A stretch of DNA of 64,000 nt, taken from NCBI GenBank assembly GCA_039808765.1, contig JBDHTQ010000001.1, positions 67,683 to 131,682 of the forward strand. The letters are read 5' to 3'. The notes beneath the pieces were generated by a model. It saw only the letters and a list, made by a program, of their open reading frames with translations. It did no database searches and had not been told where the DNA came from. The stretch comes from Bdellovibrionales bacterium (GTDB taxonomy: Bacteria > Pseudomonadota > Alphaproteobacteria > UBA2400). Both the position numbers and the translations under genes were made by a program. Below, piece after piece: positions 1 through 60,530 of this stretch. Numbering within the stretch: position 1 is the stretch's first letter; every line of letters starts with the position of its first letter.

Positions 1-2
1 AA

Positions 3-413: not shown

Positions 414-424
414 GGAGGAAAGGA

Positions 425-2190: not shown

Positions 2191-2192
2191 GC

Positions 2193-5459: not shown

Positions 5460-5483
5460 CTTCATCAACAAGGAGAATGAATA

Positions 5484-6326: not shown

Positions 6327-6345
6327 TTTTTGTGAGGCTCCAATC

Positions 6346-7063: not shown

Positions 7064-7079
7064 TTTCAGGAGAAACATC

Positions 7080-23049: not shown

Positions 23050-23640
23050 CTAACAACCGCTTACTTCACCAGTTGGCAAGACAAGTTCCTGAGCGTAGCG
23101 GGGCATGTTATAGTTACTGCTGGTAATTTTTACTTGACCAACCCACGTGAACCATCTTGGTGTCCATGAATAAACAGAGTTGACATACAACACGTCATTC
23201 AATGTTGCTGTTCTTAACGTTAAGGGAAGAGCGTTTCCATTGCAGGCACTCGGGAAGGTTGTTGACGGCACCGTGTTCGGAGGGGTAAACGCCCGTCGCC
23301 AGCGAACACTGGAATTGATAACCGTTCCAACGGCAGTCAATTTATAATCGGTTGCATAAATGGTGAACTGGCCTGCCAAGGTAAGTGGGGCCATAATTTG
23401 TTTGGAGGCAAACGTGATGATCTTTAGTTCATCACTCGTAATCACGCCATCAGAGTCTTGAGTAATGAGGTCAGAAATGCTTGATGTTGCCGTGCGGGCT
23501 TTGGCATCAGCAATCAACAAGTTGGAAACCTCAATAACACCAAGAAAAAGAATAAAAAGGATGGGCACGATTAAAGCAAATTCAACAGCCGCAACACCTT
23601 TTTGGTCTCTAAAATAATTATGCATACTCATTGCTGGCAT
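23050..23640 (-). CDS. TadE/TadF-like pilus assembly (pseudopilin) protein
   Basis: The N-terminus QKGVAAVEFALIVPILFILFLGVIEV is the TadE-like signature. Confidence 0.6.
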   Translation of the reverse strand: MPAMSMHNYFRDQKGVAAVEFALIVPILFILFLGVIEVSNLLIADAKARTATSSISDLITQDSDGVITSDELKIITFASKQIMAPLTLAGQFTIYATDYKLTAVGTVINSSVRWRRAFTPPNTVPSTTFPSACNGNALPLTLRTATLNDVLYVNSVYSWTPRWFTWVGQVKITSSNYNMPRYAQELVLPTGEVSGC

Positions 23641-23646
23641 TCCTTT

Positions 23647-24252
23647 TTAGAAAGGTTCGTTACGGAAGGCAACAGTTGATATAACCGAAATCGTACTGTG
23701 AGATCCTGAAGGCATACCGGTTAAAACTGCGAGCTGAGGCAATAAAAAACTATAGGGGTAAAGCGATCGAACAATTACCACGTATCCACCGGCTCCTGGA
23801 TTGTAGTTCGTGTCATCATCATTCAGGGTACCATTGGCAGGGTGGCTTGGGTTTGCGCCATCAGAAATATTGGAATAGGTCACATCTGAAAAGTTGGAGG
23901 CTGGAAAACTTTGAACATCCACAAGAAGTTTTTGCACACAGGTGGACTTAAAAATAGCGTAAACATTGCTACAGACGAGTTCCTTGAAGGCGGCCTGAGA
24001 CTGCGAATTGTTTCCGGTTAGATCAACCGGCGGGTTCGGGCCTGAGCCATCCGGGTCGTAAGAACCACCAACACGGATATGGCGTGCGGCCTGTTCCGTC
24101 GCGGTTTGAAGTTGCGCGTTGACAAAAAAGTAGGAACTCAAGTCAAAAATAGCATAAACAAAGACGATAAATGCTGGAGCGAGGAGGGCAAATTCGACGA
24201 CCGTCGAACCTTGTTCATTTGAGCACACATTTTTTCTTTTAAAAAAGCGCAT
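23647..24252 (-). CDS. TadE/TadF-like pilus assembly (pseudopilin) protein
   Basis: The N-terminus EQGSTVVEFALLAPAFIVFVYAIFDL is the TadE-like signature. It lies 6 nt upstream of the second TadE-like gene. Confidence 0.6.
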   Translation of the reverse strand: MRFFKRKNVCSNEQGSTVVEFALLAPAFIVFVYAIFDLSSYFFVNAQLQTATEQAARHIRVGGSYDPDGSGPNPPVDLTGNNSQSQAAFKELVCSNVYAIFKSTCVQKLLVDVQSFPASNFSDVTYSNISDGANPSHPANGTLNDDDTNYNPGAGGYVVIVRSLYPYSFLLPQLAVLTGMPSGSHSTISVISTVAFRNEPF

Positions 24253-38283: not shown

Positions 38284-38673
38284 TCATCCGCCTGAACGCC
38301 AAAGGTGCAATGGTCGCGATGGGGTTGGTTTCACATCTTTAGTTTGCTGTGTGGCGTCGCGATAATCGCGCACGCGGGTGGCGCGCAAGCCGCGTGTACC
38401 GTGACGATCAATCAATTCTTGCCATGCAATAAACTCTTCAACCGAAAGGGTGTAGCGCTCGCACGCATCTTCAAGGGTAATCAAACCAGACCGCACCGCC
38501 GTAACTAAGGCTGCTTTGCGTCGTGTGACCCAGCGGGTAGTACCAACAGGGGGTAAATCATCGAGCGTAATGGATGGTAACAAATCCTTGTTTTTCTTTC
38601 TACCCAGTCGAATAACGGAGGATTTTTTATGTACTTCTGCCGACGAAAAGTGTGAAATTTTTTCTTTATCCAT
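38284..38673 (-). CDS. DUF1153 / SciP-family helix-turn-helix protein (CtrA-inhibitor-like)
   Basis: The core TRWVTRRKAALVTAVRSGLITLEDACERYTLSVEEFIAWQELIDRHGTRGLRATRVRDYR matches the DUF1153 signature. It is adjacent to flagellar genes. Confidence 0.6.
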   Translation of the reverse strand: MDKEKISHFSSAEVHKKSSVIRLGRKKNKDLLPSITLDDLPPVGTTRWVTRRKAALVTAVRSGLITLEDACERYTLSVEEFIAWQELIDRHGTRGLRATRVRDYRDATQQTKDVKPTPSRPLHLWRSGG

Positions 38674-38835: not shown

Positions 38836-40485
38836 CTAACGCTTAATCTGCATCAACTCTTGCAGCATATCATCCGCTGTGCTGATTACTTTTGTGCCGG
38901 CAGAGTAAGCGCGTTGTGTAATGATCATTTTTGTGAATTCGTCCGAGAGGTCGATGTTTGACGTCTCCAGCGACGCTCCTTGCACCAGCCCCGCGCCGCC
39001 CGAGCCAGCCTCGCGAAGGTTGTATTGACCAGAGTCGGTGGTCTGAGCATACACATTACCGCTATGAGCCTCCAATCCATTAGGATTAGCAAAAGTGGCG
39101 ATTGGAAGTTTGTAAAGCTGACGAAATTCACCGTTGCTGAACGAGGCGATCACATAGCCATTTTCATCAATGGTGATGCCGGTTCTTTGACCAAGTTCGG
39201 CACCGTTCTGCGTTACGAAGGCCACGTTATAATCACTCGAAAACTGTGTAACAGCGCCGTTTGTGGGGTTGCCAGACGGATCAATGCCCAAGTCAAAGGT
39301 GATGGATTGTGTTCCAGCCCCTGTGTAGGCTGGATCCCAGTGAATGTTAACGGGGGTGGCGAGCTGTCCTGTCACACTATTGATCGACCCATCCGAATTA
39401 AAGTAAACGGTACCCGATGCAATATAGCCATCATCACCCGCTACGGTATCTACTAATCCTGTTGTGCGATTGACAGGCTGAACATACGTATTATCTGCAG
39501 CACGCGCTTCAACACTCCATTGGTTTACAGCAACTTTCTTAAAGCTAACAACAACGTCGCGCGCGGCGCCGAGAGAGTCGTAGATGCGCACTGTGCGTTG
39601 GAAGTCGTAGCCCAGCTGCGTGACAACACTGGTGCCGAAAAGATCCGTCATCACATTGCCCACGCTGCCGTTTTCCATGACGACTTTATCTTCAACATTA
39701 TCAGCCGTTACAACAAGCTGATTATTGATGATGCTGGCGCTGACCCCTGTAATGGCGTCAATTTTAGCCGCTAATGATTGCAAAGAGTCTGTGTCGTCAA
39801 CACTTACGTTAGTGGTGGTGCTGACACCGTTTGCATCCGTAACGGTAACATCGAAGTCGTAGGTAAAGGGTGCGGTAGCATTGAGGGTGCTTGTGAGTTC
39901 AGTCGCATCTGTTGGATCAGTGAAGGTTACAGACGATGCACCGAGTTTTTCTTCCGAATCTAAGTTAAGACCTAACTCAACCTTCGTCGTACCGGTGGCC
40001 ACACCATTGAGGAAGGCCACGTTCACAGGCTGCGTTGATGTAATATCAGCATTCGCGCTAGGGATTTGACCATCTGAATCCAGCAGCCAGCCATAGAGAT
40101 AAAAACCCGAAGCATTACGGAGATATCCTGTACTATCTTCTGAAAAATTGCCTGCGCGGGTATATAAAGCATTCGATTGCGATCCCGCGTCTGTTGAATC
40201 TTTGACCACAAAAAAACCGTTTCCGGAAATAGCAATATCAGTGGTAGAGCTGGATCCTTGGATAAGACCTTGCTGCGAAATTGTTTGAAGCGCTTTCACT
40301 CGTACGCCGCCTGGGTTATAGGTTACGCCGCGCTGCGCAACGGTTACCAAGCTTGAAAAAGAAGCGTTATCACCTTTATAACCAACAGTGCTTACGTTGG
40401 CGATGTTGTTTGAAATCATGCTGAGCGCCTGGCTTTGCGCGGAAAGTGCTGAAACCCCGGTGAACAATGATCCAAATAAGCTCAT
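38836..40485 (-). CDS. flgE: flagellar hook protein FlgE
   Basis: The N-terminus is MSLFGSLFTGVSALSAQSQALSMISNNIANVSTVGYK. The C-terminus is LETSNIDLSDEFTKMIITQRAYSAGTKVISTADDMLQELMQIKR. Confidence 0.9.
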   Translation of the reverse strand: MSLFGSLFTGVSALSAQSQALSMISNNIANVSTVGYKGDNASFSSLVTVAQRGVTYNPGGVRVKALQTISQQGLIQGSSSTTDIAISGNGFFVVKDSTDAGSQSNALYTRAGNFSEDSTGYLRNASGFYLYGWLLDSDGQIPSANADITSTQPVNVAFLNGVATGTTKVELGLNLDSEEKLGASSVTFTDPTDATELTSTLNATAPFTYDFDVTVTDANGVSTTTNVSVDDTDSLQSLAAKIDAITGVSASIINNQLVVTADNVEDKVVMENGSVGNVMTDLFGTSVVTQLGYDFQRTVRIYDSLGAARDVVVSFKKVAVNQWSVEARAADNTYVQPVNRTTGLVDTVAGDDGYIASGTVYFNSDGSINSVTGQLATPVNIHWDPAYTGAGTQSITFDLGIDPSGNPTNGAVTQFSSDYNVAFVTQNGAELGQRTGITIDENGYVIASFSNGEFRQLYKLPIATFANPNGLEAHSGNVYAQTTDSGQYNLREAGSGGAGLVQGASLETSNIDLSDEFTKMIITQRAYSAGTKVISTADDMLQELMQIKR

Positions 40486-40512
40486 GATACCCTCCTTGTT
40501 TAAAAAGTGTTA

Positions 40513-40528
40513 TGCAAAACCCGTTCCA
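40513..40528 (-). promoter_or_regulatory. sigma-54-type promoter motif upstream of flgE
   Basis: The minus strand reads TGGAAC-GGGTT-TTGCA (GG-N10-GC spacing). The -12 element lies ~28 nt upstream of the flgE ATG. Confidence 0.5.
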
Positions 40529-40530
40529 AC

Positions 40531-41268
40531 TTATGAACTTGTTGCGGTTGATGTTGAGTCACTTGATGCTGTTGTTGGAGCTGTGTAGGCACGTACTGAT
40601 TTTACAGCGCTGGGATCAATTTGCGCGCTGCCCATTTCAAGGACGGTATTGCCGCTGCTGTTTTGACTGATGCCTGTAACAACACCGTAGGTATTAATCG
40701 TATTTTTTACCGCAGCTCCACCCTCAGCGGTAGCCGTGACGCGTACCGTGTATGTGCCATCTGCAAGCTGATCACCTTCATTATCTTTGCCGTCCCAGCT
40801 CATTTCCTGTGCTTTGCCAGCTGTAAAATTCGAGCCATCAACTGTGAGGCCACGCACAAGTTTACCATCGCTGTCATAAATGCCGATATTGACCGATTTT
40901 GCCGCGCTCTCTAAGGTCACATCAAAGTTGGCATTGCTTCCTTGCAGCGGGAGTGTTGATGACTGAGATGAGACTTGCCAACCCAGATAATTCAGTGCGC
41001 TGTTGACGCCTTGACCTTGAAGCAAGTTAATCATGGAATCAAGTTTATCATTGGTTGAAAGCTGTTGCTCGACTTGGCTGTACATAACAAGTTGGTTGGT
41101 AAATTGTGCCGTATCCACCGGATTAAGGGGATCTTGATACTGCATTTGTGTTGTAAGCATTTGCAAAAATGTATCGAAATTGGCGTTCAGCGTTTTACGC
41201 GACGTTTCTGTTTTCGATGCGGTGGTATTGGTCGAGGTGGTTGAGGCGGTGGTCGTGGTCGTTGTCAT
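40531..41268 (-). CDS. flgD: flagellar hook capping/assembly protein FlgD
   Basis: The motif FDTFLQMLTTQMQYQDPLNPVDTAQFTNQLVMYSQVEQ is present, followed by a FlgD Ig-like C-terminal part. Confidence 0.85.
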   Translation of the reverse strand: MTTTTTTASTTSTNTTASKTETSRKTLNANFDTFLQMLTTQMQYQDPLNPVDTAQFTNQLVMYSQVEQQLSTNDKLDSMINLLQGQGVNSALNYLGWQVSSQSSTLPLQGSNANFDVTLESAAKSVNIGIYDSDGKLVRGLTVDGSNFTAGKAQEMSWDGKDNEGDQLADGTYTVRVTATAEGGAAVKNTINTYGVVTGISQNSSGNTVLEMGSAQIDPSAVKSVRAYTAPTTASSDSTSTATSS

Positions 41269-41298
41269 AACGTTTTCTCCTTAAACATTGTGGCGCCT

Positions 41299-43020
41299 TT
41301 AAACGCGTACATCCAAACGATCAGGATTGATGTACCATGTTACTTCACTGGCAGAGAGCGTTTGTTTATCGTCATTTTCACCATCTAAACCGAATCCAGC
41401 TTGAGAAGACGACGAACGTCCATCAGATTGTGCTTGTTGTTGTGACGATTGACCTTCGCCGCGCAGATTGAAGTTGAGGGTTGATCCATCTGTTTTAATT
41501 CCTGCATCGCTTAGCGCGCGTTCAAGACCTTTTTGATCACGTTGCAGCAGATCAAGTGTAGCGGGTTGATCGACCGAAAATCTCATCTGCACACTGCCGT
41601 CGCTGTTTGTGTCCATGCGCACCTCAATGCGACCTAGTTCAGCGGGATGAAGCTTAATGGTGATTTTATCTTGCCCGCTTTCAAAAGCATGCGAGATGTT
41701 TACCGCAACTTGATCACTCACGGGAACGTGGGTTCCATGACGATTGGAGTGAGCAAGCAAATCAGCAAATCGCGTCGCGCTATTTTCAGCTGTTTTATCC
41801 AGAGATTGAGGGGGGGTAAGTGTACCGCGATCTTTAAGCGTTACTTCTGTCCCATCAGGTTGATCGCTCTTCTTCTGTTCAAGCGTAACAACATCGGCCG
41901 AAACGGATGTTGCCATTGAGGAATGAGTTTCTGAGGTAAGTGATGCTTGAGTGATGGGGGGAGAGGGAGCAATCACGCTCTCATTTTGTGCCGATTGTTC
42001 CTCCTTGTGATGTGCAGAGGCTGCCATGTTTTTTGCGGTCGAGGTTTGATCGGTATCCACCGCTGTTTTTTGTTTGAGGGCTGTATCGGATTTGGTTCCA
42101 GCCTGCAAACCCACCTTGTGCGTATCAGATGTTTGATCCGTGCTCACTTCAGTATCAATGGTAGATGCTGTTTTTGTCTCTTGTTTATGGAGATCAATAG
42201 ATGCATTTGTTGCGTCATTGGCGTTGCTTACTCTTTGGGCGTCTGCAGTTTGCGCAGCCTGCTCTGATTGTTTTTGCTTCTGACTCGCGACAGCCTGCAT
42301 ATTTAGTTTTGCAATTGCATCCAAAAAGGCTTTGCCCATTTCTTCGGCCGAAGAAGAGCTGGAGAGTTGTGCAGCTTGCGCATTTTTGTTGGAGGCTTCC
42401 ACCTCTTGCAACGCTTGTGCGCGCTCAAGCAAATCGGCTAACGTCACGCCTTGGCTGCTGCCAGCTAAGGATGGACCGCTTTCGGCCAGAGTGGCTTGTG
42501 AGTCGGTTTTTTGTGTGGGCGCAAAAGCAGTAGGCGGCAGCGTCATCAAGGCACCGGCCAGACTGTCGAGCAAAGCGTTCTGCTCATCTTCTTTCAGGCC
42601 ATCCAAAACACCGGCTTCTTCAAGAAAACTGTGCAGAGCCGTCATATTCTCTTCTAATAAATCCGTTTGTAGACCCGGCATAACTGTTTCTAGCGAGACC
42701 ATACTCAACCCTTTGGCCTGTAACGCGGTGCTGAGCGCTGTCCATGAAACATTGGCTTGCGCGCTAGTGGTCGAGGCATAATTTTCCAGCGTTGTCAGAT
42801 TAATGGGTAAAGTTTGCCCAGTGACGCCGCCTTTGAATAACTTGAGCGAGGCAGTGGGTAAACCCTTGCCGCTTAAGGTTTGAATAAAACTGGAAAAGAG
42901 AGAAAATGCGTGGTTTTCGGTATTTTCTTGCGTGCTCGAAGCACCCAAAGCACCCAAAATGCCCGTACTGGACGAAGGAGTCGTGCTGGATAATGAAACG
43001 CCAGGAAGTGATGTCATCAT
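41299..43020 (-). CDS. fliK: flagellar hook-length control protein FliK
   Basis: The central region is long and Ser/Thr/Ala/Gln-rich. The C-terminal Flg_hook domain reads ITIKLHPAELGRIEVRMDT..VQMRFSVDQPATLDLLQRDQKGLERALSDAGIK. Confidence 0.75.
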   Translation of the reverse strand: MMTSLPGVSLSSTTPSSSTGILGALGASSTQENTENHAFSLFSSFIQTLSGKGLPTASLKLFKGGVTGQTLPINLTTLENYASTTSAQANVSWTALSTALQAKGLSMVSLETVMPGLQTDLLEENMTALHSFLEEAGVLDGLKEDEQNALLDSLAGALMTLPPTAFAPTQKTDSQATLAESGPSLAGSSQGVTLADLLERAQALQEVEASNKNAQAAQLSSSSSAEEMGKAFLDAIAKLNMQAVASQKQKQSEQAAQTADAQRVSNANDATNASIDLHKQETKTASTIDTEVSTDQTSDTHKVGLQAGTKSDTALKQKTAVDTDQTSTAKNMAASAHHKEEQSAQNESVIAPSPPITQASLTSETHSSMATSVSADVVTLEQKKSDQPDGTEVTLKDRGTLTPPQSLDKTAENSATRFADLLAHSNRHGTHVPVSDQVAVNISHAFESGQDKITIKLHPAELGRIEVRMDTNSDGSVQMRFSVDQPATLDLLQRDQKGLERALSDAGIKTDGSTLNFNLRGEGQSSQQQAQSDGRSSSSQAGFGLDGENDDKQTLSASEVTWYINPDRLDVRV

Positions 43021-43251: not shown

Positions 43252-44142
43252 ATGTCGACGATCTCCCGCGTGGGAACCCATCAATCTCAGAGCTTTATTC
43301 TTGATCAGATCAACAAAGCGACTGTTGGGTATGTTAAAACCCAAGAGCAGATTACCACGGGCTATAAATCCCAGCGTTACACGGGTATTTCAGATTATGC
43401 GGCTATGTCGGTCAACCTTTCCAACAGCAAAGATAATTTGCAGCAATATCTTGATGCCTCGAGTGTTACAAATTCTCGTATTAGTGCGATGCACACGGCT
43501 CTTTCTAATATCTTGGATATTGTTAGCTCAATGCGGGCGCAATTGATTCAAGGGATGACGGCCGATCAAGCTGATGATGCGCAGCTACAATCGGTTGCAT
43601 CCGAATATCTGTCGCAAGTTGAATCGGCTCTCAACACAGATTTGGGGGGCGTTTATTTGTTTGGCGGTACAAAAAATACGACGCCGCCCGTTGATTTAAG
43701 TGATCCGATCAATAATGCGAGCGGCGACTTTTATTCAGGCGCAGGGCAGTTGATGCAAGCGCGGATTGATGAAAACACCGTTTTCCAGTATGGCGATACA
43801 GCTAACCGACAAGGGTTTAAAGATTTGGTGGCGTCACTGCAGCGTGTTATTTCTGCTTCAGGGGATCTGAGTCAGCTCGAAACTGCATTGGATGAAATTA
43901 ACGACTCCCTCTCCGACCTCACAAATCTAGAGGCTGTGATGGGTTATCAGATGAAGGTTGTTGAGCAATCACAAACACGCAACGACGCCGTAAAATCGAC
44001 AGTAGTTAATCAGCTTTCCTCAATACAAGATGTTGACGTTTCTGCAGCCATGGTCGATCTCACCCAGCGCGAAACGATTTTGCAGGCGTCTTATCAAGTC
44101 ATTGCACGCGGTAGCCAGTTAAGTCTTACAAACTACCTGTAA
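43252..44142 (+). CDS. flgL: flagellar hook-associated protein 3 (FlgL), flagellin-fold
   Basis: 296 aa with flagellin-like N- and C-terminal helices (..LQASYQVIARGSQLSLTNYL). It is too short and too divergent to be a flagellin. No flgK is adjacent. Confidence 0.6.
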   Translation: MSTISRVGTHQSQSFILDQINKATVGYVKTQEQITTGYKSQRYTGISDYAAMSVNLSNSKDNLQQYLDASSVTNSRISAMHTALSNILDIVSSMRAQLIQGMTADQADDAQLQSVASEYLSQVESALNTDLGGVYLFGGTKNTTPPVDLSDPINNASGDFYSGAGQLMQARIDENTVFQYGDTANRQGFKDLVASLQRVISASGDLSQLETALDEINDSLSDLTNLEAVMGYQMKVVEQSQTRNDAVKSTVVNQLSSIQDVDVSAAMVDLTQRETILQASYQVIARGSQLSLTNYL

Positions 44143-44324
44143 AATCATTTGCCTTGCATTAATTCATTGTAGCGAGAGGATAAAATGATTTTATTTTTAA
44201 GATCGGAAAATTATGCGCACAGGACTAGAAATCCTTTTGTGAGTTGAAGGTGTAAATGATTAAATAATTTTTACTTTTTTAGTTTAGAGTGAAATTTCTT
44301 TGTAAAAAATTAGGAGAGTAAGTC

Positions 44325-44948
44325 ATGTTGTCACTCCTCATTCTAAGCGCAATTATGTTATGTGAACTTTTTATTCATTATGTATTTATATATGAGTTTA
44401 TTGGTGGCTGGCTGATCCTTCTCATAAAAATTGCGTCTGATAAAATCGCCCCGCGCAAGGCAAAAATTCTAAATTTTTTGGGTGTTCTTTTTTTTCCGCC
44501 CCTTATGTTGGTTTTTGCGTTGAAACAAAAATCGTGGGCATGGAAAATTTATGGCGGATTTAATTTGGTCGTTATTATTATCTTGTTGGCGCTGACAGTT
44601 TCTTATACGTCAATACACACAAAGCGTCCTTATCGGGATGATCAGTTTTTAAAAATATCTAAGAATGACAATTCGTCTGAAACATCGGCTAAACTTGCTA
44701 TCAATGATATATATGTAAAGGTTACGTCGCTTGAAGATGCTCATGACAAAAAAAGTCCCGTCGGTGTCGTTATTTTTCGATTGGGTCGTTATGCCGATAG
44801 CTTGGAAAGCCACGCCATTGAACCGCAAAGGATCGAATCTGAACTGAAAAAGTTAGAGCCTTATCTCGATGATAAAAAACTCACTTCGCATGAGGTGGAC
44901 CAGTGGGTTCGCGACACTATGCCGAGTAACTCTAAGGGGATGAAGTGA
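44325..44948 (+). CDS. hypothetical membrane protein in an AT-rich insert
   Basis: Four hydrophobic helices in the N-terminal half and a charged C-terminal half. The gene and its flanks are visibly more AT-rich than the neighbouring flagellar genes. Confidence 0.4.
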   Translation: MLSLLILSAIMLCELFIHYVFIYEFIGGWLILLIKIASDKIAPRKAKILNFLGVLFFPPLMLVFALKQKSWAWKIYGGFNLVVIIILLALTVSYTSIHTKRPYRDDQFLKISKNDNSSETSAKLAINDIYVKVTSLEDAHDKKSPVGVVIFRLGRYADSLESHAIEPQRIESELKKLEPYLDDKKLTSHEVDQWVRDTMPSNSKGMK

Positions 44949-44966
44949 TTTTTTGCAGAAAAGTTT

Positions 44967-45260
44967 TCAAGTGTTTGGCGCGGTGTAAACTTTGTTGTTG
45001 GCAGCATAAACGCGCGCCAGAATTTCACTGACAACATGTAATGCTTCAAGGGGAATGTTCTCACCCACATCAACGGCCGCAAGAATTTGAGCGAGGTCGG
45101 CGTCTTCACGCACTTTTACGCCATTTGCAAAGGCAAGCTCTAAGATCGCTTGAGCAACTTCGCCATAACCGCTGGCAACTACTTTGGGCAGCGGTCCTTC
45201 TGCGCCTTGTAACGCGACTGCGACGGTGCGGGGTGGGGAAGGGGGGATCATCAACAACAC
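44967..45260 (-). CDS. FlhB C-terminal-domain-like protein (EscU/YscU/HrcU family fragment, YlqH-like)
   Basis: The sequence VAVALQGAEGPLPKVVASGYGEVAQAILELAFANGVKVREDADLAQILAAVDVGENIPLEALHVVSEILARVY matches the soluble C-terminal domain of FlhB. It has no TM domain. Confidence 0.7.
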   Translation of the reverse strand: MLLMIPPSPPRTVAVALQGAEGPLPKVVASGYGEVAQAILELAFANGVKVREDADLAQILAAVDVGENIPLEALHVVSEILARVYAANNKVYTAPNT

Positions 45261-45279
45261 TCCTTCACGTAGCGATATT

Positions 45280-46842
45280 TTACCCTAATAATGCATAAAC
45301 CCATTCAGGGCGAAGATCAGGCCACCACAAAAGCAACAATGCGATGACAATCACTGCAAGGCTTGCTCCCCAACCAATCGAACCGGCAGTCGCAGAAATT
45401 TTTTTATTGGGTGCGATGATGGTTTTAAGGGCGCGACGTCCGGCTATTTCAACGCTTATCCATGGAATAAGAGCAAAAATAGCGATAAGGCCGATATCCA
45501 TAGCCCATGTTGGCACGTTGGCGGGAATAAACTCAGGGCGGGGATTATAGAGCCACGCAAAAATAGCTCCGCTTGAAAGTGCGATAGATCCGCCCGCAGC
45601 GATTAATCGCGGTTTAACAGTTACGGTTGAAAACAAGCGTCGCAATTGTCCTGCTAGCATGAAGGCGACATCGGGAGAGACGCCGTAAGGATAGCGTCGC
45701 GCAAAAAACACTCGGGGTTTAACGCCCGCAGCCAAGGCTTCGCTCAGTTCTCGCAATAAACGAAACTGACGGCAGAATTTTGGCAAGGTTGTTAAGTCAA
45801 GTGATCGTGTTATTTGTTTCAAACGATCATCCAGTAATGGGGGGAAGGAGACAAGAATGGGTTTGTATCCTAATGATTCCACCACTACGATTTCATCTTT
45901 AAGCTGTAAAGTAAATTGGCCATAGGGAAAGCGGGCGTCAAGCGCAATAGCTGGTACATCCATTTCGGGCGGGGTTGGGGCGGGCGAAACCAATGCAATG
46001 CCCATTTTATCGAGCTTATCCAGCCCAACGTCGTTCAGTGCATCAACGACGTTCCCATTAGGTTGAGGGATGAAACTTCCAGCGCGAAAACTGCTTACAG
46101 CATTCACTGTTAGTGTTGTTAATTCTGTAAAATAACCTTGTCCATTACAGAGAGTGCATTGTGTTTGGCCATGGCCTTGGCAATGGGTGCAAACAATACG
46201 TCCGCGACTGTTGCATTGAGGGCATGGCAACGTGCGCAGACCATTGCATTGGGGGCATGCCCGTCCGCCTTGGCTGGACGGATCGCTGCCTGTACCGCGA
46301 CACGTGGTACAATTAATGCGGCCACGCTCATAGCAAAGTTCGCATGATCGTTCGCGCTGGCCGTGGCAGGTGCGACACACTTCCCAACGTTGGCCCTTAC
46401 ATTGTTCGCATACTTCCGTCAAAGCAACTGTTTGGGTTAAGCGAGGCAAAGGCCAGCGCGCTGCGTTGCTTCCCCAAAGCTGACTTAATTGGCCTTGTAC
46501 AGCAGTTTGAACATCTTCTAGCCAACCTGGTTGTGCTTCAAACGTTTGAGTGGCCGTGCTGAGGTAATGAGTATATTGGTGACGGTCTTGAAAAACCTTG
46601 TTTTCATTGCCGTTGGTCTGCCCGGGGCGCCGCTGGGTGTTCTGGTTTACGGCGAGTTTAAATTCTACCAAGCCTTTAAGGGTAAAATCGGTATTTTTAT
46701 CCTGACGGATATCAATTTCATCGAATCGGTATCCGTTGCCTGCAAGGATGCGGCGCAATAAAGTCAGTGTGCTATTGCGCAGGTCACCAATTTCATCAGC
46801 GGACGAGATGGGCAGGTCGGGATCTATGGGTTGATCAGACAT
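45280..46842 (-). CDS. membrane protein with a DnaJ-type zinc-finger array (eight CxxC motifs) and C-terminal TM helices
   Basis: Residues ~169-260 of the listed ORF read CEQCKGQR, CRTCHGQR, CELCYERG, CTTCRGTG, CPQCNGLR, CPQCNSRG, CTHCQGHG, CTLCNGQG. Three or more hydrophobic helices lie at the C-terminus. The start is uncertain (46914, 46854 or 46842). Confidence 0.55.
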   Translation of the reverse strand: MSDQPIDPDLPISSADEIGDLRNSTLTLLRRILAGNGYRFDEIDIRQDKNTDFTLKGLVEFKLAVNQNTQRRPGQTNGNENKVFQDRHQYTHYLSTATQTFEAQPGWLEDVQTAVQGQLSQLWGSNAARWPLPRLTQTVALTEVCEQCKGQRWEVCRTCHGQRERSCELCYERGRINCTTCRGTGSDPSSQGGRACPQCNGLRTLPCPQCNSRGRIVCTHCQGHGQTQCTLCNGQGYFTELTTLTVNAVSSFRAGSFIPQPNGNVVDALNDVGLDKLDKMGIALVSPAPTPPEMDVPAIALDARFPYGQFTLQLKDEIVVVESLGYKPILVSFPPLLDDRLKQITRSLDLTTLPKFCRQFRLLRELSEALAAGVKPRVFFARRYPYGVSPDVAFMLAGQLRRLFSTVTVKPRLIAAGGSIALSSGAIFAWLYNPRPEFIPANVPTWAMDIGLIAIFALIPWISVEIAGRRALKTIIAPNKKISATAGSIGWGASLAVIVIALLLLWWPDLRPEWVYALLG

Positions 46843-47182
46843 GGGATGAATCATCCTCGGGTGTTTGGTTGGGATTGGAAAGTGGGCCCTTTTCCTCTGA
46901 CGAAGGGTGGGCATGGGGATCGGATTCTTGAAGAGTGACTTTACCTAAAGAAAAGGGCTTGTCTGGCAAAATAAGGGGCCGGTCCGGCGGTATGAAGGCA
47001 ATTTCTGCCGCGGCGCGGTTCTCCTCCTGAATGCGGTCAAAGACTTCTTTGCGCAGGATTGTGATTGACTCAGGGAATTTTAACCCCAGTTTAACAGATT
47101 TTCCCGAAACAGAAACCACTGTAATCTCAATGTTTTCATTGATCATAATGGTTTCGCCGATTTTTCTGGTCAGATAAAGCAC
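46835..47182 (-). CDS. csrA: CsrA-family RNA-binding regulator with a ~50-aa Pro-rich C-terminal extension
   Basis: A GTG start at 47182 gives MLYLTRKIGETIMINENIEITVVSVSGKSVKLGLKFPESITILRKEVFDRIQEE. This is collinear with E. coli CsrA ([54 protein letters not shown]). Confidence 0.7.
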   Translation of the reverse strand: MLYLTRKIGETIMINENIEITVVSVSGKSVKLGLKFPESITILRKEVFDRIQEENRAAAEIAFIPPDRPLILPDKPFSLGKVTLQESDPHAHPSSEEKGPLSNPNQTPEDDSSHV

Positions 47183-47186
47183 GGAT

Positions 47187-47202
47187 TGGCCTGTTTCCTG
47201 CA
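47187..47202 (+). promoter_or_regulatory. weaker sigma-54-like motif facing flgB
   Basis: The sequence is TGGCCT-GTTTC-CTGCA (GG-N10-GC), ~135 nt upstream of the flgB ATG. It is a weaker match than the three motifs above. Confidence 0.3.
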
Positions 47203-47295
47203 AGGGGTTAATCGATAGGGTGTAAGAGCATAAGCTCCCGGTAAAAATGACCGACCTATTTGTAACAGGACTGTTCTCACCTGACAAAGGCAAAA

Positions 47296-47311
47296 TGCGA
47301 AAAGCACGCCA
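47296..47311 (-). promoter_or_regulatory. weaker sigma-54-like motif facing the csrA-like operon
   Basis: The minus strand reads TGGCGT-GCTTT-TCGCA (GG-N10-GC), ~115 nt upstream of the csrA-like GTG. Confidence 0.3.
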
Positions 47312-47338
47312 GTAGGAGAGAGGAGAAGGGGGTAAACG

Positions 47339-47752
47339 ATGTCCATGAGTGGATTAACATTACTTTCTCAAATTGAGAAAAAAGTCGATTGGCTGGCAGC
47401 ACGATCGCAAATTTTGTCCAAAAACGTGGCAAATGCCGACACACCGGGTTATCGTACGCAGGACTTGAAGCCATTTAGCCTTACTCGCACCCTTCAGGGT
47501 GCACCGGCGCTGGCGCTGGCAAGCACAAGTAGCGGTCATATCACCGACTCGCCGCGTGTTTCGCAGGTGCCGGTCCTTGATGATAATCTGCCGATTACCG
47601 AAACCTCGCCGGATGGTAATCAGGTTTCGATTGAAGATCAAATGACCAAAGTTGCTGATACCGGTATGGAGTATCAGACAATGACCAACCTTTACCGCAA
47701 ACAACTATCTATGCTGAAAACGGCGATCGGTCGTGGCGGCGCGTCAGCATAA
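47339..47752 (+). CDS. flgB: flagellar basal-body rod protein FlgB
   Basis: The motif LAARSQILSKNVANADTPGYR is present. It is the first gene of flgB-flgC-fliE. Confidence 0.85.
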   Translation: MSMSGLTLLSQIEKKVDWLAARSQILSKNVANADTPGYRTQDLKPFSLTRTLQGAPALALASTSSGHITDSPRVSQVPVLDDNLPITETSPDGNQVSIEDQMTKVADTGMEYQTMTNLYRKQLSMLKTAIGRGGASA

Positions 47753-47775
47753 TTGAAGAGACAGAGGAGGTTTAG

Positions 47776-48192
47776 ATGGACGGAAGTTTTTCAACCACAC
47801 AAAAAATTTCTTATGCCGGTCTTGCTGCACAAGCAGCACGCATGCGCGTGATTGCAGAAAATATTGCAAATGCTGATTCGACCGCTCCTACGCCCGACGG
47901 TTTGCCATATCGTCGTCAGGTTGTAACATTCGGGCAGCAGCTTGATGAAACAAGCGGCACAGATTTGGTCAAAGTTAAAGACATCAAGCAAGACGGTAGC
48001 GAATTTCCCCGTAAATATATGCCAGGACATCCCAGTGCTGATGCCGATGGGTACGTTTTGTATCCTAATGTGAATAGTCTGGTAGAGACCATGGATATGC
48101 GTGCTGCTCAGCGCAGTTACGAAGCCAATTTGAATGTTATTGAAAATGAGCGTATGATGGCCGCGCGCTCAATTGATCTTTTACGCGCTTAA
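47776..48192 (+). CDS. flgC: flagellar basal-body rod protein FlgC
   Basis: The motif RMRVIAENIANADST is present. The C-terminus reads VNSLVETMDMRAAQRSYEANLNVIENERMMAARSIDLLR. Confidence 0.9.
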   Translation: MDGSFSTTQKISYAGLAAQAARMRVIAENIANADSTAPTPDGLPYRRQVVTFGQQLDETSGTDLVKVKDIKQDGSEFPRKYMPGHPSADADGYVLYPNVNSLVETMDMRAAQRSYEANLNVIENERMMAARSIDLLRA

Positions 48193-48224: not shown

Positions 48225-48539
48225 ATGGTAAATCTTAATCAGGTTGCGTCTGCGGCCTATGGCGCCAGTCAGAAACTAGGCTTAAAAGGGGCTGGTGAGC
48301 CCGCTCAGAATGATGGCCAGTACGATACCTTTGCCGCTATGGTTGAAAAAGGGATGGATAGGGTTATCGATAGCCAGCACCGTGCCGAAAAGCTTTCCGC
48401 CGATTTGGTTATGGGGAAAGCGGATGTCAATGATGTGATTTTTGCAACTCAGGATGCCAGTATGATGCTTGAAACATTTGTTGCGCTTCGTGATAAAGTC
48501 CTTCAGGCTTATCAAAATATCATGAGTTCAGCGATCTAA
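48225..48539 (+). CDS. fliE: flagellar hook-basal body complex protein FliE
   Basis: 104 aa. The C-terminus is DVNDVIFATQDASMMLETFVALRDKVLQAYQNIMSSAI. Confidence 0.85.
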   Translation: MVNLNQVASAAYGASQKLGLKGAGEPAQNDGQYDTFAAMVEKGMDRVIDSQHRAEKLSADLVMGKADVNDVIFATQDASMMLETFVALRDKVLQAYQNIMSSAI

Positions 48540-48743
48540 ACTGAGGCAAGTGCAATCGTTTACTCCTTACTTCTTGCATCTTCTTTTTTCCTTTGATGCT
48601 GCCTGCAGCAAAACTTCGCGTTGTGTTTTTGTTCGATCAACTTTATAAGTTTTTATCCCCCTACGGATTGCTCGAAGGTTTTGCCGGGCGAGTGAGGCAG
48701 GGATCAGTGTTTCGCCGTAAAAATTACCGAGGTTTTGTTCAAA

Positions 48744-50228
48744 ATGAAGAAGTCTGGCTGGATTGCGTTATCGATTTTTCTGATTGTGATTTTGGCGATT
48801 GCTGTCGCTGCTGATCGCCTGCTTGCCTTTTCAGCAACAAAGATGTTGGAGGATGCACAAAATCGTCTTCCCGCGGGAACAACCTTTATGCACGGCGAAT
48901 TGCATACCAGCCTCTTTCGGCGGGTGGTCGTGCTTGATAATTTTGTCTACCAAACACCCATATGGACGTTTAAAGCCGATCGCGCCGTGTTGCGTGGCGT
49001 GCCTTGGATCGACAATGAATCATTGTCGTTAGGCGGTATCGAACTGGTAAAGCCTGTTGTAACGGGACCGGTGAGTGGCTCGCTTGATCAATTGGTCGTG
49101 GGGCATCCTTATATCGGACCCGTTAAGGAGGGTGAGGCATCGGGCCTGCAATTCCAATCGCTTGAGGCAAAAAATCTAGACTCGCGTTATGAAAAAGATG
49201 GTAGTTTTCTGCGTGTGGGGGATTTGGAAATCAAAAATTTAACGGGTACAAATCTCGGTCAACTAAAAATTGTGGATTTGGAAGCCCATATTGCCGATAT
49301 TAACCTTGCCGAAAAGTTACAGCGACAAGCAGAGATACGTAGGCTAAATGCGAACATCGATTCGCTTCCTGATGGACCTGTGGTTCCCGCTGAGCCGGTT
49401 AATGCAAAGCTTGAATTTCTCTCTGCCGACGGGGTTGACCTCGCGCTTTTTAAAAATAATGATTCGACCGATGTTTTAAATCGGCTTTTTTTTCAAGATA
49501 GCTTGCGTGCCCTTGAGATAAAAAAACTAAAGGTAGAAAAAAATAATCATCAGGATTTTGATGTCGATTCTGTCCTATTTAATGGGGAAGATGTTGCCCA
49601 TAACGAGCGCCGCGGCCTTAATTTCGCTATTCAAAATCTCAAGATCGCAGCAGGTGGCCTTCCCCCGGAGTTAATCGAAAATCTAAAGGCAGGTGGGCAT
49701 GATGCGCTTCTCGTCAATTTGACTGCAGGTGCAACTTTTGATGAAACAGCGCATCAGTTAAAGATTGGGCCGTTTGAATTGCGGGCTGATGGCCTGTTTG
49801 CTCTCAGCGCTTTCTTTAATCTCGTAAATATTAGAAATCTTGCTCAAATGTCGAGTCCTGCTGCCGTCGCGTCAATGGGATTTAAGGATGGCGAGATCAG
49901 TCTTGTTGATTTCGGCGGCATTTCACGCTATACAAATATGAAAGCAAAGAATCATGGCATGACACGCGCTGATTATGTTGCGACACAGCTGAACATTTTT
50001 TCTCAAGGGACGCCCCTTGATCAAATGCCCAGCCGAAGTCGCGATATTTTTACAGCCGTGACGCGTTTTTTAAACGAGCCATCAGGTGTGCGCTTTGTCG
50101 CACATCCTCAAGATCCTGTATCGTTAGTCCTTATCTTCGTGATGGTCCAAACGAAACAAGTGCAGGTTTTATTGGATAAAATAGGATTAACAACTGAAAA
50201 AATGGAGAATCAACATTTATCACAATAA
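48744..50228 (+). CDS. membrane-anchored hypothetical protein (~495 aa)
   Basis: A single N-terminal TM helix (GWIALSIFLIVILAIAVAA) is followed by a large extracytoplasmic part. I recognise no family. Confidence 0.45.
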   Translation: MKKSGWIALSIFLIVILAIAVAADRLLAFSATKMLEDAQNRLPAGTTFMHGELHTSLFRRVVVLDNFVYQTPIWTFKADRAVLRGVPWIDNESLSLGGIELVKPVVTGPVSGSLDQLVVGHPYIGPVKEGEASGLQFQSLEAKNLDSRYEKDGSFLRVGDLEIKNLTGTNLGQLKIVDLEAHIADINLAEKLQRQAEIRRLNANIDSLPDGPVVPAEPVNAKLEFLSADGVDLALFKNNDSTDVLNRLFFQDSLRALEIKKLKVEKNNHQDFDVDSVLFNGEDVAHNERRGLNFAIQNLKIAAGGLPPELIENLKAGGHDALLVNLTAGATFDETAHQLKIGPFELRADGLFALSAFFNLVNIRNLAQMSSPAAVASMGFKDGEISLVDFGGISRYTNMKAKNHGMTRADYVATQLNIFSQGTPLDQMPSRSRDIFTAVTRFLNEPSGVRFVAHPQDPVSLVLIFVMVQTKQVQVLLDKIGLTTEKMENQHLSQ

Positions 50229-50314: not shown

Positions 50315-50932
50315 ATGAAGTTTTACCCCGATGAGCGTGTTGCTGTTTTTATTGATGGAGCAAATCTTTATTCAGCCGCACGTGGATTGGTTTTTGATAT
50401 CGATTACAAGAAGATGCTTGAGTTTTTCCGGAGTCGTTGCCGTTTGATTCGCGCGTGTTATTACACCGCTCTTCTTGATGACAATGAGTTTTCTCCTATT
50501 CGTCCATTGGTCGACTGGTTGGATTATAACGGCTACACGATGATCACCAAACCCGCGAAGGAATTCACGGATTCTATGGGCCGCCGTAAAATCAAAGGCA
50601 ATGTTGATATTGAACTGGCCGTTGATATGATGGAAATGTCTTTGAATGTTGATCATATCGTTTTGTTCTCCGGTGATGGCGACTTCCGCTCACTGGTTGA
50701 AGCAGTGCAACGTAAAGGCGTACGTGTGACAGTTGTCAGCACCATGCGTTCACCTACCCCTATGGTGGCGGACGAATTGCGTCGTCAGGCCGATACATTT
50801 GTTGATCTTGTTGAGTTGGTTCCTTTCATCAGCCGCGCCCAGCGTGCTGAAGGTGCTACAAACAATTACGAAGAATCTTATGAAATGGATGTTCAACCCC
50901 AGCACGATGCTGCGCTGGAAACAACACCCTGA
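50315..50932 (+). CDS. NYN-domain (LabA-like) protein
   Basis: The motifs RVAVFIDGANLY, KGNVDIELAVD and LFSGDGDFRSLVEAVQRKG are present. Confidence 0.75.
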   Translation: MKFYPDERVAVFIDGANLYSAARGLVFDIDYKKMLEFFRSRCRLIRACYYTALLDDNEFSPIRPLVDWLDYNGYTMITKPAKEFTDSMGRRKIKGNVDIELAVDMMEMSLNVDHIVLFSGDGDFRSLVEAVQRKGVRVTVVSTMRSPTPMVADELRRQADTFVDLVELVPFISRAQRAEGATNNYEESYEMDVQPQHDAALETTP

Positions 50933-57884: not shown

Positions 57885-57992
57885 CTATAAGGTATTATAA
57901 AATTAAAAATCTTTATGACTTAATTTTTTATTCATCAGTAATCCCTTAATATGTTATGGTTGTGGTCCATATGGGACGGGGAGGGTATTGTT

Positions 57993-60530
57993 ATGTTTTT
58001 CCGTTTTTTTAAGAGTGATTTAACTCAATCTCATTCAGAAAAAAATAACAAAACCTTTTTTCGTGATCAAAGTGGCGCCTTTGTTATTCTTTTTGCCTTC
58101 CTGCTTGTGCCTTTGATCGCTGCTGTTGGGTTTGCTGTTGATTCAGCGCGCGGTTTTGCTGTTCGCTCGCACCTGCAGTCATCGTTGGATTCTGCAGCTC
58201 TTGTCGGGGTTAAATATTTCAATAATAATCCTCAAGAACGCGATCAGATGATCCATGATTACTTTTATGCCAATTGGCGAGCCAATTATCATAACAGCCG
58301 TGATATTCCCGATACTGATCTTCATATCGTTGCCAATTATGTTGATCCCGTAAGCCAACAGGAAATGAAACTTTTAGTGAGCGCAACTGTAGAAGTTCCC
58401 ACCGTTCTCATGCGCATTTTTAATGCCACATACGCGGGGGCTAGCGGACCGAACCTCATGAAGGTCGGGGGGCGATCCGGGACAGAACTACCTGACGTCG
58501 ATACCACGTTTGAAGTCGCTTTGGCGCTTGATACAACTGCTTCAATGAATACGACGATGAGCAACGGCCAACGTCGTATTGATTCGATGAAAGCCCGCGC
58601 AAAAGAATTCGTCAATCAACTCTTTACAGTTGAAGGCGCACTGACCGATGTGTCAGACGTGCTCAACGTAAGCGTTGTGCCATTTACCAGCGTGGTGAAC
58701 GTGGGGACACAACATCAAAGCTTCTTGGCAGCTAACTCACTCAATAATATTGTTTGGGATTTTCCTAAAAATTCTACTCCCTATAATTCATGGCGGGGCT
58801 GCATGTTTGAGCGTGCCTATTATGAAGATGGCTCTGGTTATCAAGGCAATGACATGACGGATGCTAGCCCGGATACCGAAAAATTTTGGCCATATCATGT
58901 TAATTATCCTCAAGTGCAAGCGTATCAATCATGTCCTGCTGCCCCTGTTCAACCTGGGCAGGGTTGTACACAATTTTGTAACCCTAGTGACCTTGTCACC
59001 GTTCAACAAGATTGTACTTATTATTTGGATGGTATTGCTCACCCAAAAATGTGCCCTTATACCTATTGTACTAATTCACAATGGTCGTGTACCGGTGCTG
59101 CCGGCAGTAGTAGTGGTAGCAGTCGTTGGGTTGAGCCAGGTGAACATCATCCTTGGGAATACGCAGGTGTAAAAAATACATCTGCAACAGGTTATCCTGA
59201 ATGCCCTGTCACAGACCAGCATAATCCCCCCTTGGTCACGCATGGTTTTACGAATGTAACTGGAACTCAATTTACGAATTATACGAGCTCTCCTGGTTTA
59301 AATGTTAAGCCATATGCAGTATTTCAGGATACAAATGGCTTTTATACAGTACATCCGACTGAGGTTGACAATTATCTCGTCTTGTATCTTGGTGCCAATT
59401 TTACCTTTACGGGAAGCTATTTTTACCCTGCTTTGAGAAATATGAGTGCCGTAGCAAACAGAAATCAGAACAACACTTCAGTGTGCTGTTATCCCACAGA
59501 TCATTATGCTATCGGTACTGCACCTATTAAATGGAGTATGGGGGGGCGGTGGATCTATCCGTGGCCTACGAACAGTGGACCTAATAACATTAAGTTTGGT
59601 GGGTATGGAAATTCAGGATGTGGTTTACCATTGCTGCCTCTCACCAACAAGCGCCTTGATATTCTTGCTTCAATTGACAAAATTGATGTGACTAATTACG
59701 TCAAATTGCATGAAGACTACCCCACTGGACAAGGTAATACGTATTATTATGATATCGCTTCATACAACGGTACGATTATCAATGAAGGCCTTGTTTGGGG
59801 ATGGCGCACAATTTCGTCAAAGTGGCAAAATAAATGGAAGTTTGAAAGCGGAACGCCGATCAATTCGGACCTGCCACGTAGCGAAAGCTTAAAGAGTAAC
59901 GTTAAGGCGGTTGTTGTTTTGACCGACGGCTTGAATAACGTGCAATCAGTCGAGTCAGGTTCTCTTTCAGAAACCTCCAATTCTAGCTTTCCTTGGTGGG
60001 TCAAATATATGGTGTCTGCTGATGTTTCAGGGAACATAGATGTTAACTCGCCTGTGAAAGGGAATATTGTGGATGCCGATGCTTCAGCATATGGATACAT
60101 GGCTGATACAGATATCAGTAACGCTCGTCGGCAATTTTGTTTGGTGCGTAAACAATTGCTTGCCGATACCCCTCTACGTAGTTCTGAGGTTATTCTCAAT
60201 ACGTGGGGTTGCCGAGATGTTGATTGTATGATCCGTGATTCATCTGGGCAGTGCACACAGCAATCTAACGCGGCTGGGTTTGGGACGTACTATGATACTC
60301 TTGAACAAAAGCTCAAGACAACCTGTTTGAACATGCGTGCAAAAAACATCCATCCGTACTTTATCCTGTTCGATGTGGATGGGTCAACCTATAAAAATCG
60401 TTTGATGAATACGTTAAATGAGTGTGTAGGGACTTCAGGCGGTGTTTATAGCGCTGATAATGCAAATGCATTAAGTGCAGCATTTGCTGCAATTGCTCAG
60501 TCGATTAGACGCTTGCGCCTAAGCTTATAA
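57993..60530 (+). CDS. TadG-like pilus-associated protein with a vWA domain and a large Cys-rich insert
   Basis: The RBS ggagg lies 8 nt before the ATG at 57993. The Tad_N signature is RDQSGAFVILFAFLLVPLIAAVGFAVDSARG. The MIDAS-like motif is ALDTTASM. WRGCMFERAY, VVVLTDGLNN and YFILFD are also present. Confidence 0.7.
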   Translation: MFFRFFKSDLTQSHSEKNNKTFFRDQSGAFVILFAFLLVPLIAAVGFAVDSARGFAVRSHLQSSLDSAALVGVKYFNNNPQERDQMIHDYFYANWRANYHNSRDIPDTDLHIVANYVDPVSQQEMKLLVSATVEVPTVLMRIFNATYAGASGPNLMKVGGRSGTELPDVDTTFEVALALDTTASMNTTMSNGQRRIDSMKARAKEFVNQLFTVEGALTDVSDVLNVSVVPFTSVVNVGTQHQSFLAANSLNNIVWDFPKNSTPYNSWRGCMFERAYYEDGSGYQGNDMTDASPDTEKFWPYHVNYPQVQAYQSCPAAPVQPGQGCTQFCNPSDLVTVQQDCTYYLDGIAHPKMCPYTYCTNSQWSCTGAAGSSSGSSRWVEPGEHHPWEYAGVKNTSATGYPECPVTDQHNPPLVTHGFTNVTGTQFTNYTSSPGLNVKPYAVFQDTNGFYTVHPTEVDNYLVLYLGANFTFTGSYFYPALRNMSAVANRNQNNTSVCCYPTDHYAIGTAPIKWSMGGRWIYPWPTNSGPNNIKFGGYGNSGCGLPLLPLTNKRLDILASIDKIDVTNYVKLHEDYPTGQGNTYYYDIASYNGTIINEGLVWGWRTISSKWQNKWKFESGTPINSDLPRSESLKSNVKAVVVLTDGLNNVQSVESGSLSETSNSSFPWWVKYMVSADVSGNIDVNSPVKGNIVDADASAYGYMADTDISNARRQFCLVRKQLLADTPLRSSEVILNTWGCRDVDCMIRDSSGQCTQQSNAAGFGTYYDTLEQKLKTTCLNMRAKNIHPYFILFDVDGSTYKNRLMNTLNECVGTSGGVYSADNANALSAAFAAIAQSIRRLRLSL

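Follow-up and report, generated by a model that had tools for sequence, protein, structure and literature searches.

A predicted membrane protein with eight DnaJ-type CxxC motifs lies between csrA and flhX in flagellar loci of a Micavibrio-like lineage

We analysed a 64,000-nucleotide stretch of contig JBDHTQ010000001.1 (assembly GCA_039808765.1; hereafter the window) and characterized a minus-strand gene whose product, named here ZnF, combines an array of eight CxxC motifs of the DnaJ zinc-centre type with three predicted transmembrane (TM) helices. The gene lies between csrA and flhX, which encodes a free-standing FlhB C-terminal domain, and the three-gene unit is divergent from the proximal rod genes flgB, flgC and fliE. 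On the sequences compared, ZnF sets a known zinc-finger module in a new architecture, within an unannotated family. We tentatively propose that ZnF is anchored in the membrane near the flagellar export gate and there binds CsrA and/or FlhX, a reading to which we give somewhat less than an even chance.

ZnF lies between csrA and flhX in a compact unit conserved in its close clade

csrA, ZnF and flhX are tightly packed head to tail on the minus strand (Table 1). An earlier note, made from the letters of this DNA, had described ZnF as overlapping a csrA-like gene at its 5' end. This was confirmed: the csrA stop and the ZnF start share 8 nt, ATGTCTGA, as read from the sequence, and the upstream product is CsrA both by Pfam (PF02599, 4.9e-20) and by TIGR00202, at equivalog level (74.8 bits, cutoff 70.1). 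The longest ZnF open reading frame (ORF) extends to 46914, and ATG 46842 was taken as the start because the N-termini of homologues align there at MS(D/Q). The earlier note had also placed an FlhB-CTD-like gene directly 3' of ZnF, which is correct, and had given the gap as 20 nt; from the ZnF stop, the distance is 28 nt to ATG 45251, which is preceded by an AAGGAG ribosome-binding site with a spacer of 8 nt, or 19 nt to the alternative start GTG 45260. A scan of 44200-47800 for promoters and terminators gave counts at chance level and no internal minus-strand signals.

The divergent orientation relative to flgBC-fliE, likewise reported earlier, was borne out and is conserved in the close clade, since fliE-flgC-flgB faces csrA-ZnF-flhX in every placeable member of the close ZnF group. 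The arrangement was found in the window and in the related loci L001-L009 and L012-L014, and is partly visible in L015, L018, L023 and L024, the contigs of L015 and L018 ending before the full unit. Besides the window, nine loci are complete, and three more lie on contigs too short to display all the genes. Its carriers include three GTDB genomes, two of them Micavibrio metagenome-assembled genomes (MAGs) and one labelled Pseudobdellovibrionaceae. By trigger-factor similarity, a rough guide on which cultured Azospirillaceae score no more than about 50%, the window probably comes from an uncultured relative of Micavibrio. The flgB, flgC and fliE genes of the window share 42-72% identity (tblastn) with their Pfam-annotated counterparts in the related loci, and ZnF itself 29-48% across the loci carrying the unit. 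At six of seven distinct junctions (the window and five of six related loci), the end of csrA shares 4-8 nt with the beginning of ZnF, stop codon over start codon, and ZnF and flhX share 4 nt in the same way at three of six distinct junctions. Judging by these sequences, the stop/start overlaps are a translational coupling of csrA, ZnF and flhX. Downstream, fliO-like and fliP genes follow in the ZnF-flhX operon of L004 and L012-L014; in the window and L001, flhX is the last gene of the operon, with no gate genes after it.

Two plus-strand ORFs border this region. One, of 207 residues and hydrophobic (44325-44948), is convergent with flhX, and the other, of 497 residues (48735-50228), follows fliE; neither has a family match, and no counterpart of either was detected in the related loci.

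ZnF combines a DnaJ-type zinc-finger array with domains for which no fold match was found

The earlier outline of ZnF as a protein of about 520 residues, with a soluble N-terminal part, a middle domain and C-terminal TM helices, proved accurate (520 residues, three TM helices). The nucleotides given for its eight CxxC motifs (46135-46410), several of which were said to be exact CxxCxGxG, also proved exact. The motifs start at residues 145, 156, 167, 178, 196, 207, 218 and 229, spanning 88 residues with a spacing of 11-11-11-18-11-11-11; those at 178, 218 and 229 are exact CxxCxGxG, and the remaining ones are CxxCxGxR or CxxCxxxG. When ZnF was shuffled 20,000 times, no shuffle contained eight CxxC motifs and the maximum was five. 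All 16 cysteines are invariant among 55 homologues with identity down to 19%, and most members of this 55-sequence alignment keep the spacing 11-11-11-(17/18)-11-11-11. By analogy with DnaJ, from which the stoichiometry is taken, the array probably holds four Cys4 zinc sites, and ZnF is predicted to bind zinc.

The array is flanked by two predicted cytoplasmic domains. The N-terminal domain, modelled as a helix (21-33), a long beta-hairpin (43-73) and further helices (87-122), has the invariant residues GNG 35-37, G74 and WG 123-124, and has no match in Pfam, PDB or BFVD. The middle domain carries the conserved PxFLD 334-338, YPxG(L/V)S 384-389 and R412, and gave no family or fold match in Pfam or by Foldseek against PDB and BFVD. 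Hydrophobic TM helices follow at about 413-432, 446-468 and 488-507, and the tail (508-520) contains P512 and W514, conserved across the whole family. Counted together, lysines and arginines number 4 ahead of TM1, 1 between TM1 and TM2, 5 between TM2 and TM3, and 1 in the tail after TM3, and no signal peptide is evident in ZnF. This positive-inside pattern indicates an N-in/C-out topology, placing the finger array in the cytoplasm.

An AlphaFold2 model computed from the 55-sequence alignment was obtained with a predicted local distance difference test score (pLDDT) of 93.9 and a predicted template modelling score (pTM) of 0.76. It runs from an alpha/beta domain at the N-terminus through the finger and a middle part, first beta-rich and then helical, to the TM helices. 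Compared with solved structures in PDB by Foldseek, the model agrees only at the DnaJ/BSD2-type zinc finger, and no match outside the finger was returned from PDB or BFVD. Pfam and NCBIfam scans gave only sub-threshold matches to DnaJ cysteine-rich (DnaJ-CR), BSD2 and GRXCR models and no model covering the protein. The family hidden Markov model has a single match in the window, ZnF itself.

Most members of the ZnF family lie outside flagellar loci

An exhaustive HMMER search with ZnF recovered 1226 representatives at E<1e-3, the weakest of which may cover the zinc finger only; 302 remain at E<1e-10, and 58 at E<1e-30. Most of the matches span the full length of proteins with about 500-550 residues, at 22-30% identity. 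Word-indexed searches returned only five close relatives with ZnF and only six, none of them new, with the 55-sequence profile, and tblastn against plasmids found matches to the zinc-finger segment only, in Halobaculum. The names retrieved for 20 clusters of the family read 'hypothetical protein' only, one of them from an Alphaproteobacteria MAG, and the family is probably alphaproteobacterial. A faint DUF1153 match was seen near a distant family member, at locus L010.

When 145 near-full-length top matches were clustered, the window protein fell into a group of 12 representatives, the flagellar clade. The earlier note had stated beforehand that homologues found mostly outside flagellar contexts would speak against a flagellar role, and most of them do lie outside. 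Broad ZnF alignments contain no conserved stretch of 7-10 columns (column-degeneracy check), and the contexts of distant members are therefore a sample of six, drawn from the two largest other clusters. Two of these six family members lie after uvrA. Of the others, one is flanked by surA and dnaE, with a fliE some 8 kb off, one adjoins greA, one precedes truB-rpsO-pnp and one lies between mnmE and rho. All six contexts are different and unrelated, and none has an adjacent flagellar gene. The proposed linkage between ZnF and flagellar genes consequently holds in every close-clade locus and fails in every distant context sampled. From the gene orders compared, ZnF in the csrA-flhX unit is a lineage-specific insertion.

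FlhX is usually found without ZnF and often heads early export-gate genes

The downstream gene had been described in the earlier note as a free-standing FlhB C-terminal domain. The domain assignment stands: the product matches Pfam Bac_export_2 (7.7e-13) over profile positions 258-335 of 335, and the FlhX profile aligns to residues 4-84 of the post-cleavage FlhB chain 3B1S_B. Against TIGR00789 it scores 58.4 bits (6e-16), under the cutoff of 117.35. FlhX is soluble, without a TM domain, and corresponds to the cleaved FlhB C-terminal subdomain (FlhB-CC); it has PPRT at the position of FlhB's NPTH, and hence no NPTH site. The protein is, however, already described. It is called FlhX in a Pseudomonas putida preprint, according to which its role is not well understood and its gene is normally paired with a FliK-like gene (bioRxiv 10.1101/2021.08.29.457346); as sources on FlhX the preprint gives Pallen 2005, Wand 2006 and Smith 2009.

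Nor is ZnF its usual companion. A metagenome scan with the FlhX alignment yielded 80 loci, L023-L102, in each of which the nearest recognisable upstream neighbour was tallied. This was a directly adjacent divergent flgB in 40 loci, flgB at a distance in nine, flgC at a distance in one, csrA in four and ZnF in two; seven had no recognised neighbour despite at least 1.6 kb of readable upstream sequence, and 17 had too little upstream sequence. The csrA-flhX loci total five, the one with overlapping ORFs being tallied elsewhere. Most of the alphaproteobacterial metagenome loci have flhX directly opposite flgB. At least 55 of the loci with readable upstream sequence carry flhX but no ZnF. On its 3' side, flhX is commonly followed by an ORF of about 110 residues, a fliO-like gene and fliP (for example in L027, L029, L061, L088, L097, L004 and L012). 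This usual context indicates that in the ancestral unit flhX stood first in an early export-gate operon facing flgBC-fliE, and it places a poorly understood protein among the early export-gate genes. As reconstructed from these gene orders, csrA joined flhX in some lineages, and ZnF then came to lie between csrA and flhX in one of them.

CsrA has a longer, proline-rich tail where ZnF is present

Among the loci seen, ZnF adjoins flhX only where csrA is also present, and csrA-flhX pairs without ZnF exist. The two kinds of loci differ in CsrA itself. CsrA of the window ends in a proline-rich C-terminal tail of 58 residues (within 46835-47008). In the ten ZnF-containing loci with a readable csrA, the tail following the ENRA motif has 30-58 residues with 6-10 prolines, and most of these tails combine a (P/F)DLxxLxLP-like motif with an acidic end. 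In the five csrA-flhX loci without ZnF (L041, L045, L071, L079 and L087), by contrast, the tail has 14-21 residues with 0-3 prolines, so that the two ranges do not overlap.

The intergenic region between csrA and flgB is conserved as well. Nine aligned loci share the block TTGTCA, 17 nt, TAnnAA, a hairpin of variable sequence, and an invariant TGCAGGAA..GGCCAA placed 12-13 nt before the csrA start. The reading frame varies between loci, indicating that the leader is conserved at the DNA or RNA level, and it may be a CsrA (GGA) autoregulatory leader. On folding, a hairpin forms at the same place in each locus; the fold energies are no better than those of shuffles (z -0.7 to +0.6), and RNAalifold found no compensatory pairs in the csrA leaders. 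Our literature searches on CsrA in alphaproteobacterial flagellar loci yielded almost nothing, and the subject appears little studied.

Possible role of ZnF

The fixed and coupled position of ZnF, its dependence on csrA, the changed CsrA tail and the export-gate context together argue for a functional link between ZnF and its neighbours. As to its nature, our tentative preference is for ZnF as a binding partner of CsrA and/or FlhX. ZnF would be an inner-membrane protein with three TM helices, exposing in a cytoplasmic part of about 410 residues the DnaJ-CR-type finger as a protein-binding surface. One copy of a mostly stand-alone family was inserted, in a Micavibrio-like lineage, between csrA and flhX, where the early flagellar export-gate operon begins, and its product would be made stoichiometrically with theirs. 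It would most likely dock CsrA through the lineage-specific proline-rich tail, and possibly also FlhX, a soluble mimic of FlhB-CC, beside the export gate. CsrA-dependent translational control would thereby be coupled to the state of the export apparatus, ZnF acting in a role like that of FliW with a binding mode like that of anti-TRAP. Physical contact of ZnF with CsrA or FlhX, and an effect on flagellar assembly, are what we infer from this arrangement. A more elaborate version, in which ZnF, CsrA and FlhX form a new checkpoint device at the export gate, sequestering or releasing CsrA as the state of secretion changes, appears to us decidedly improbable. If true, it would make ZnF a non-homologous replacement for FliW and would provide the first function for a large unannotated family with a new fold.

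Several observations weigh against the binding-partner proposal. The flagellar link of ZnF does not extend beyond a single lineage, uncultured or predatory (12 of 145 representatives), the rest of the family being non-flagellar, as were all six distant contexts, and in related lineages csrA and flhX both function without ZnF. ZnF is also the least conserved of the three products: its identity is 29-48%, whereas FlhX reaches 63-75% and CsrA 59-78% along the part aligned. In addition, ZnF of the flagellar clade keeps all family-wide invariant residues and has no added domain, suggesting that its biochemistry is probably that of the non-flagellar majority. Finally, the ZnF-containing and ZnF-free loci may simply be two clades, in which case the tail correlation may reflect one evolutionary event.

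Some of these observations favour an alternative in which ZnF is a housekeeping membrane protein only residing in the operon. It would do the same job as the rest of its family, for instance general quality control of clients in the membrane or cytosol, and would owe its place between csrA and flhX to the inherited accident of one ancestral insertion. The large size of the family, the small share and unchanged invariants of the flagellar clade, the six non-flagellar contexts, the absence of a clade-specific domain and the single ZnF copy in the window would all fit. Chance adjacency would nevertheless be expected to decay over such divergence, whereas the arrangement and its start/stop overlaps persist in every clade locus with ZnF identity falling to about 30%, and the presence of ZnF coincides with the altered CsrA tail. 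We regard this alternative as rather unlikely, though it is the most serious competitor.

Somewhat less probable still is that ZnF acts independently of CsrA, as an assembly chaperone (holdase) or membrane anchor of the flagellar type III export gate. The finger would hold the cytoplasmic parts of gate proteins, or FlhX at the membrane, ZnF and FlhX in the latter case forming a two-piece FlhB-like module. FlhX, as the exact counterpart of the FlhB-CC fragment without a membrane anchor of its own, would suit such a module. ZnF and flhX share an operon, which in L004 and L012-L014 also includes fliO-like and fliP genes, and in three distinct loci the end of ZnF overlaps the beginning of flhX. 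BSD2 and other J-less DnaJ-CR proteins are, moreover, established assembly factors. Against this, FlhX does without ZnF in the at least 55 metagenome loci counted above, the operon of the window and L001 stops after flhX, and both the restriction of ZnF to loci with csrA and the change in the CsrA tail would be left unexplained. That ZnF is a membrane-located redox or zinc sensor, signalling oxidative stress or metal status through a thiol/zinc switch as in Hsp33 or zinc-binding anti-sigma (ZAS) factors, is very improbable, since the 16 invariant cysteines of the cytoplasmic array offer a general analogy only, the motif pattern and profile fit DnaJ structural zinc centres rather than Hsp33/ZAS signatures, and neither ZnF nor its surroundings include a sigma factor or an output domain for signalling.

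FlhX has no settled role, and a conserved ZnF fixed between csrA and flhX gives a testable handle on CsrA and FlhX together. The survey also flags a large unnamed family, with hundreds of clusters at 50% identity, a very confident predicted structure for which solved analogues exist only at the finger, and an unusually long eight-motif finger of the DnaJ type.

Other features of the window

Besides the genes listed in Table 1, the window contains, at 1-7484, a gene-transfer-agent (GTA)- or prophage-tail-like block with a DUF6950 gene, a 945-residue Phage-tail_3 protein, a phage lysozyme and a GTA-type holin with three TM helices. An NYN-domain protein (4.9e-40) is encoded on the plus strand at 50315-50932, just beyond the flagellar block, and TadE/TadG-like pilus genes lie at 23050-24252 (minus strand) and 57951-60530 (plus strand).

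Table 1. Coordinates of the csrA-ZnF-flhX unit, the domains of ZnF and the flagellar genes of the window
Feature	Position	Strand	Remarks
DUF1153 gene	38284-38673	-	adjoins flgE; E 1.6e-30
fliK, flgD, flgE	38836-43020
Probable flgL (flagellin-family gene)	43252-44142		further along from the unit
flhX (free FlhB C-terminal domain)	44967..45251	-	94 aa; ATG start 45251
ZnF membrane protein gene	45280..46842	-	520 aa; stop TAA 45282-45280; from ORF and sequence
ZnF, three TM helices and short periplasmic tail (predicted)	45283..45606	-	from hydropathy, K+R counts and model helices
ZnF, middle cytoplasmic domain	45607..46134	-	residues 237-412: beta-rich 237-332, helical 338-412
ZnF, eight-CxxC DnaJ-CR-type zinc-finger array	46135..46410	-	residues 145-236
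ZnF, N-terminal cytoplasmic domain	46411..46842	-	residues 1-144, first ~15 disordered
csrA	46835..47182	-	115 aa; GTG start 47182; stop 46837-46835
csrA/flgB divergent intergenic region	47183..47338	.	156 bp; conserved promoter-like and leader blocks
flgB	47339-47752	+	proximal rod gene, divergent from csrA-ZnF-flhX; ORF
flgC	47776-48192	+	proximal rod gene, divergent from csrA-ZnF-flhX; ORF
fliE	48225-48539	+	proximal rod gene, divergent from csrA-ZnF-flhX; ORF

Comparison with known systems

No flagellar component with the architecture of ZnF was found in full-text literature searches, in line with the earlier note, and the comparison has to be made part by part. The finger resembles the cysteine-rich domain of DnaJ (Hsp40 type I; PF00684, 1EXK) in its repeated CxxCxGxG-type motifs. 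The ZnF family profile matches 1EXK at E 1.2e-10, and PF00684 matches 36 of 55 family members; the window protein alone scores 17.9 bits, under the gathering threshold of 32.7. DnaJ, however, has four motifs where ZnF has eight, and ZnF is anchored by three TM helices. No J domain (PF00226, HPD motif) was found in ZnF at E<=0.1 in Pfam or NCBIfam, no G/F region in the Pfam scan, and no DnaJ C-terminal domains CTD I/II by Pfam or Foldseek. The NCBIfam DnaJ models touch only residues ~199-278, with 17-21 bits against cutoffs above 330, and the PDB DnaJ chain 6JZB matches in the zinc-finger segment only. Membership of ZnF in the DnaJ family was thus rejected, for want of a J domain.

BSD2 shares with ZnF a cysteine-rich domain without a J domain, and BSD2 (6EKB) is the best PDB match of ZnF by Foldseek (61 columns, TMt 0.74, E 0.014). 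PF25436 matches 29 of 55 family members, the window protein reaching 17.3 bits against a cutoff of 27. BSD2-type plant proteins are small and plastid-located, with four motifs, whereas ZnF is bacterial, with a zinc finger twice as long; they have nothing homologous to its N-terminal, middle or TM parts. The plant proteins OR, LQY1 and PSA2 are further J-less assembly factors with DnaJ-like zinc fingers, BSD2 and its kind each serving specific complexes, and some plant members are membrane-anchored.

The pairing of flhX with an uncharacterised upstream partner recalls the fliK2-flhX pairs (PP_4328/PP_4329 in Pseudomonas putida; flhX-fliK in Nitratiruptor). That usual partner carries a FliK-type Flg_hook domain (PF02120), which ZnF lacks, and ZnF was rejected as a FliK2-like partner on this ground; in the window, the Flg_hook domain is found in fliK (41299-43020, 8.1e-15).

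FliW, a CsrA antagonist in the flagellar partner switch, acts on the C-terminal extension of CsrA. ZnF is like it in that its gene adjoins csrA in flagellar loci, the CsrA tail being lengthened only where ZnF is present. FliW is nonetheless small and soluble and has no sequence or fold similarity to ZnF, and no FliW domain (PF02623) was matched in ZnF, in the window ORFs scanned or among the Pfam matches of the related loci. For the mode of binding, a parallel is anti-TRAP (RtpA; PF15777; 3LCZ, 2BX9), a DnaJ-CR-like zinc protein that binds and inactivates the RNA-binding regulator TRAP. Its similarity to ZnF is at motif level only, with weak profile matches to the ZnF family (E 0.006, 5 of 55 members), and it is a soluble oligomer of 53 residues from Bacillus whose target is TRAP, not CsrA. 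The DnaJ-CR-type module serves as a protein-binding surface in all three characterised relatives, DnaJ, BSD2 and anti-TRAP, and the last of these shows a mechanism by which a zinc finger might likewise act on CsrA.

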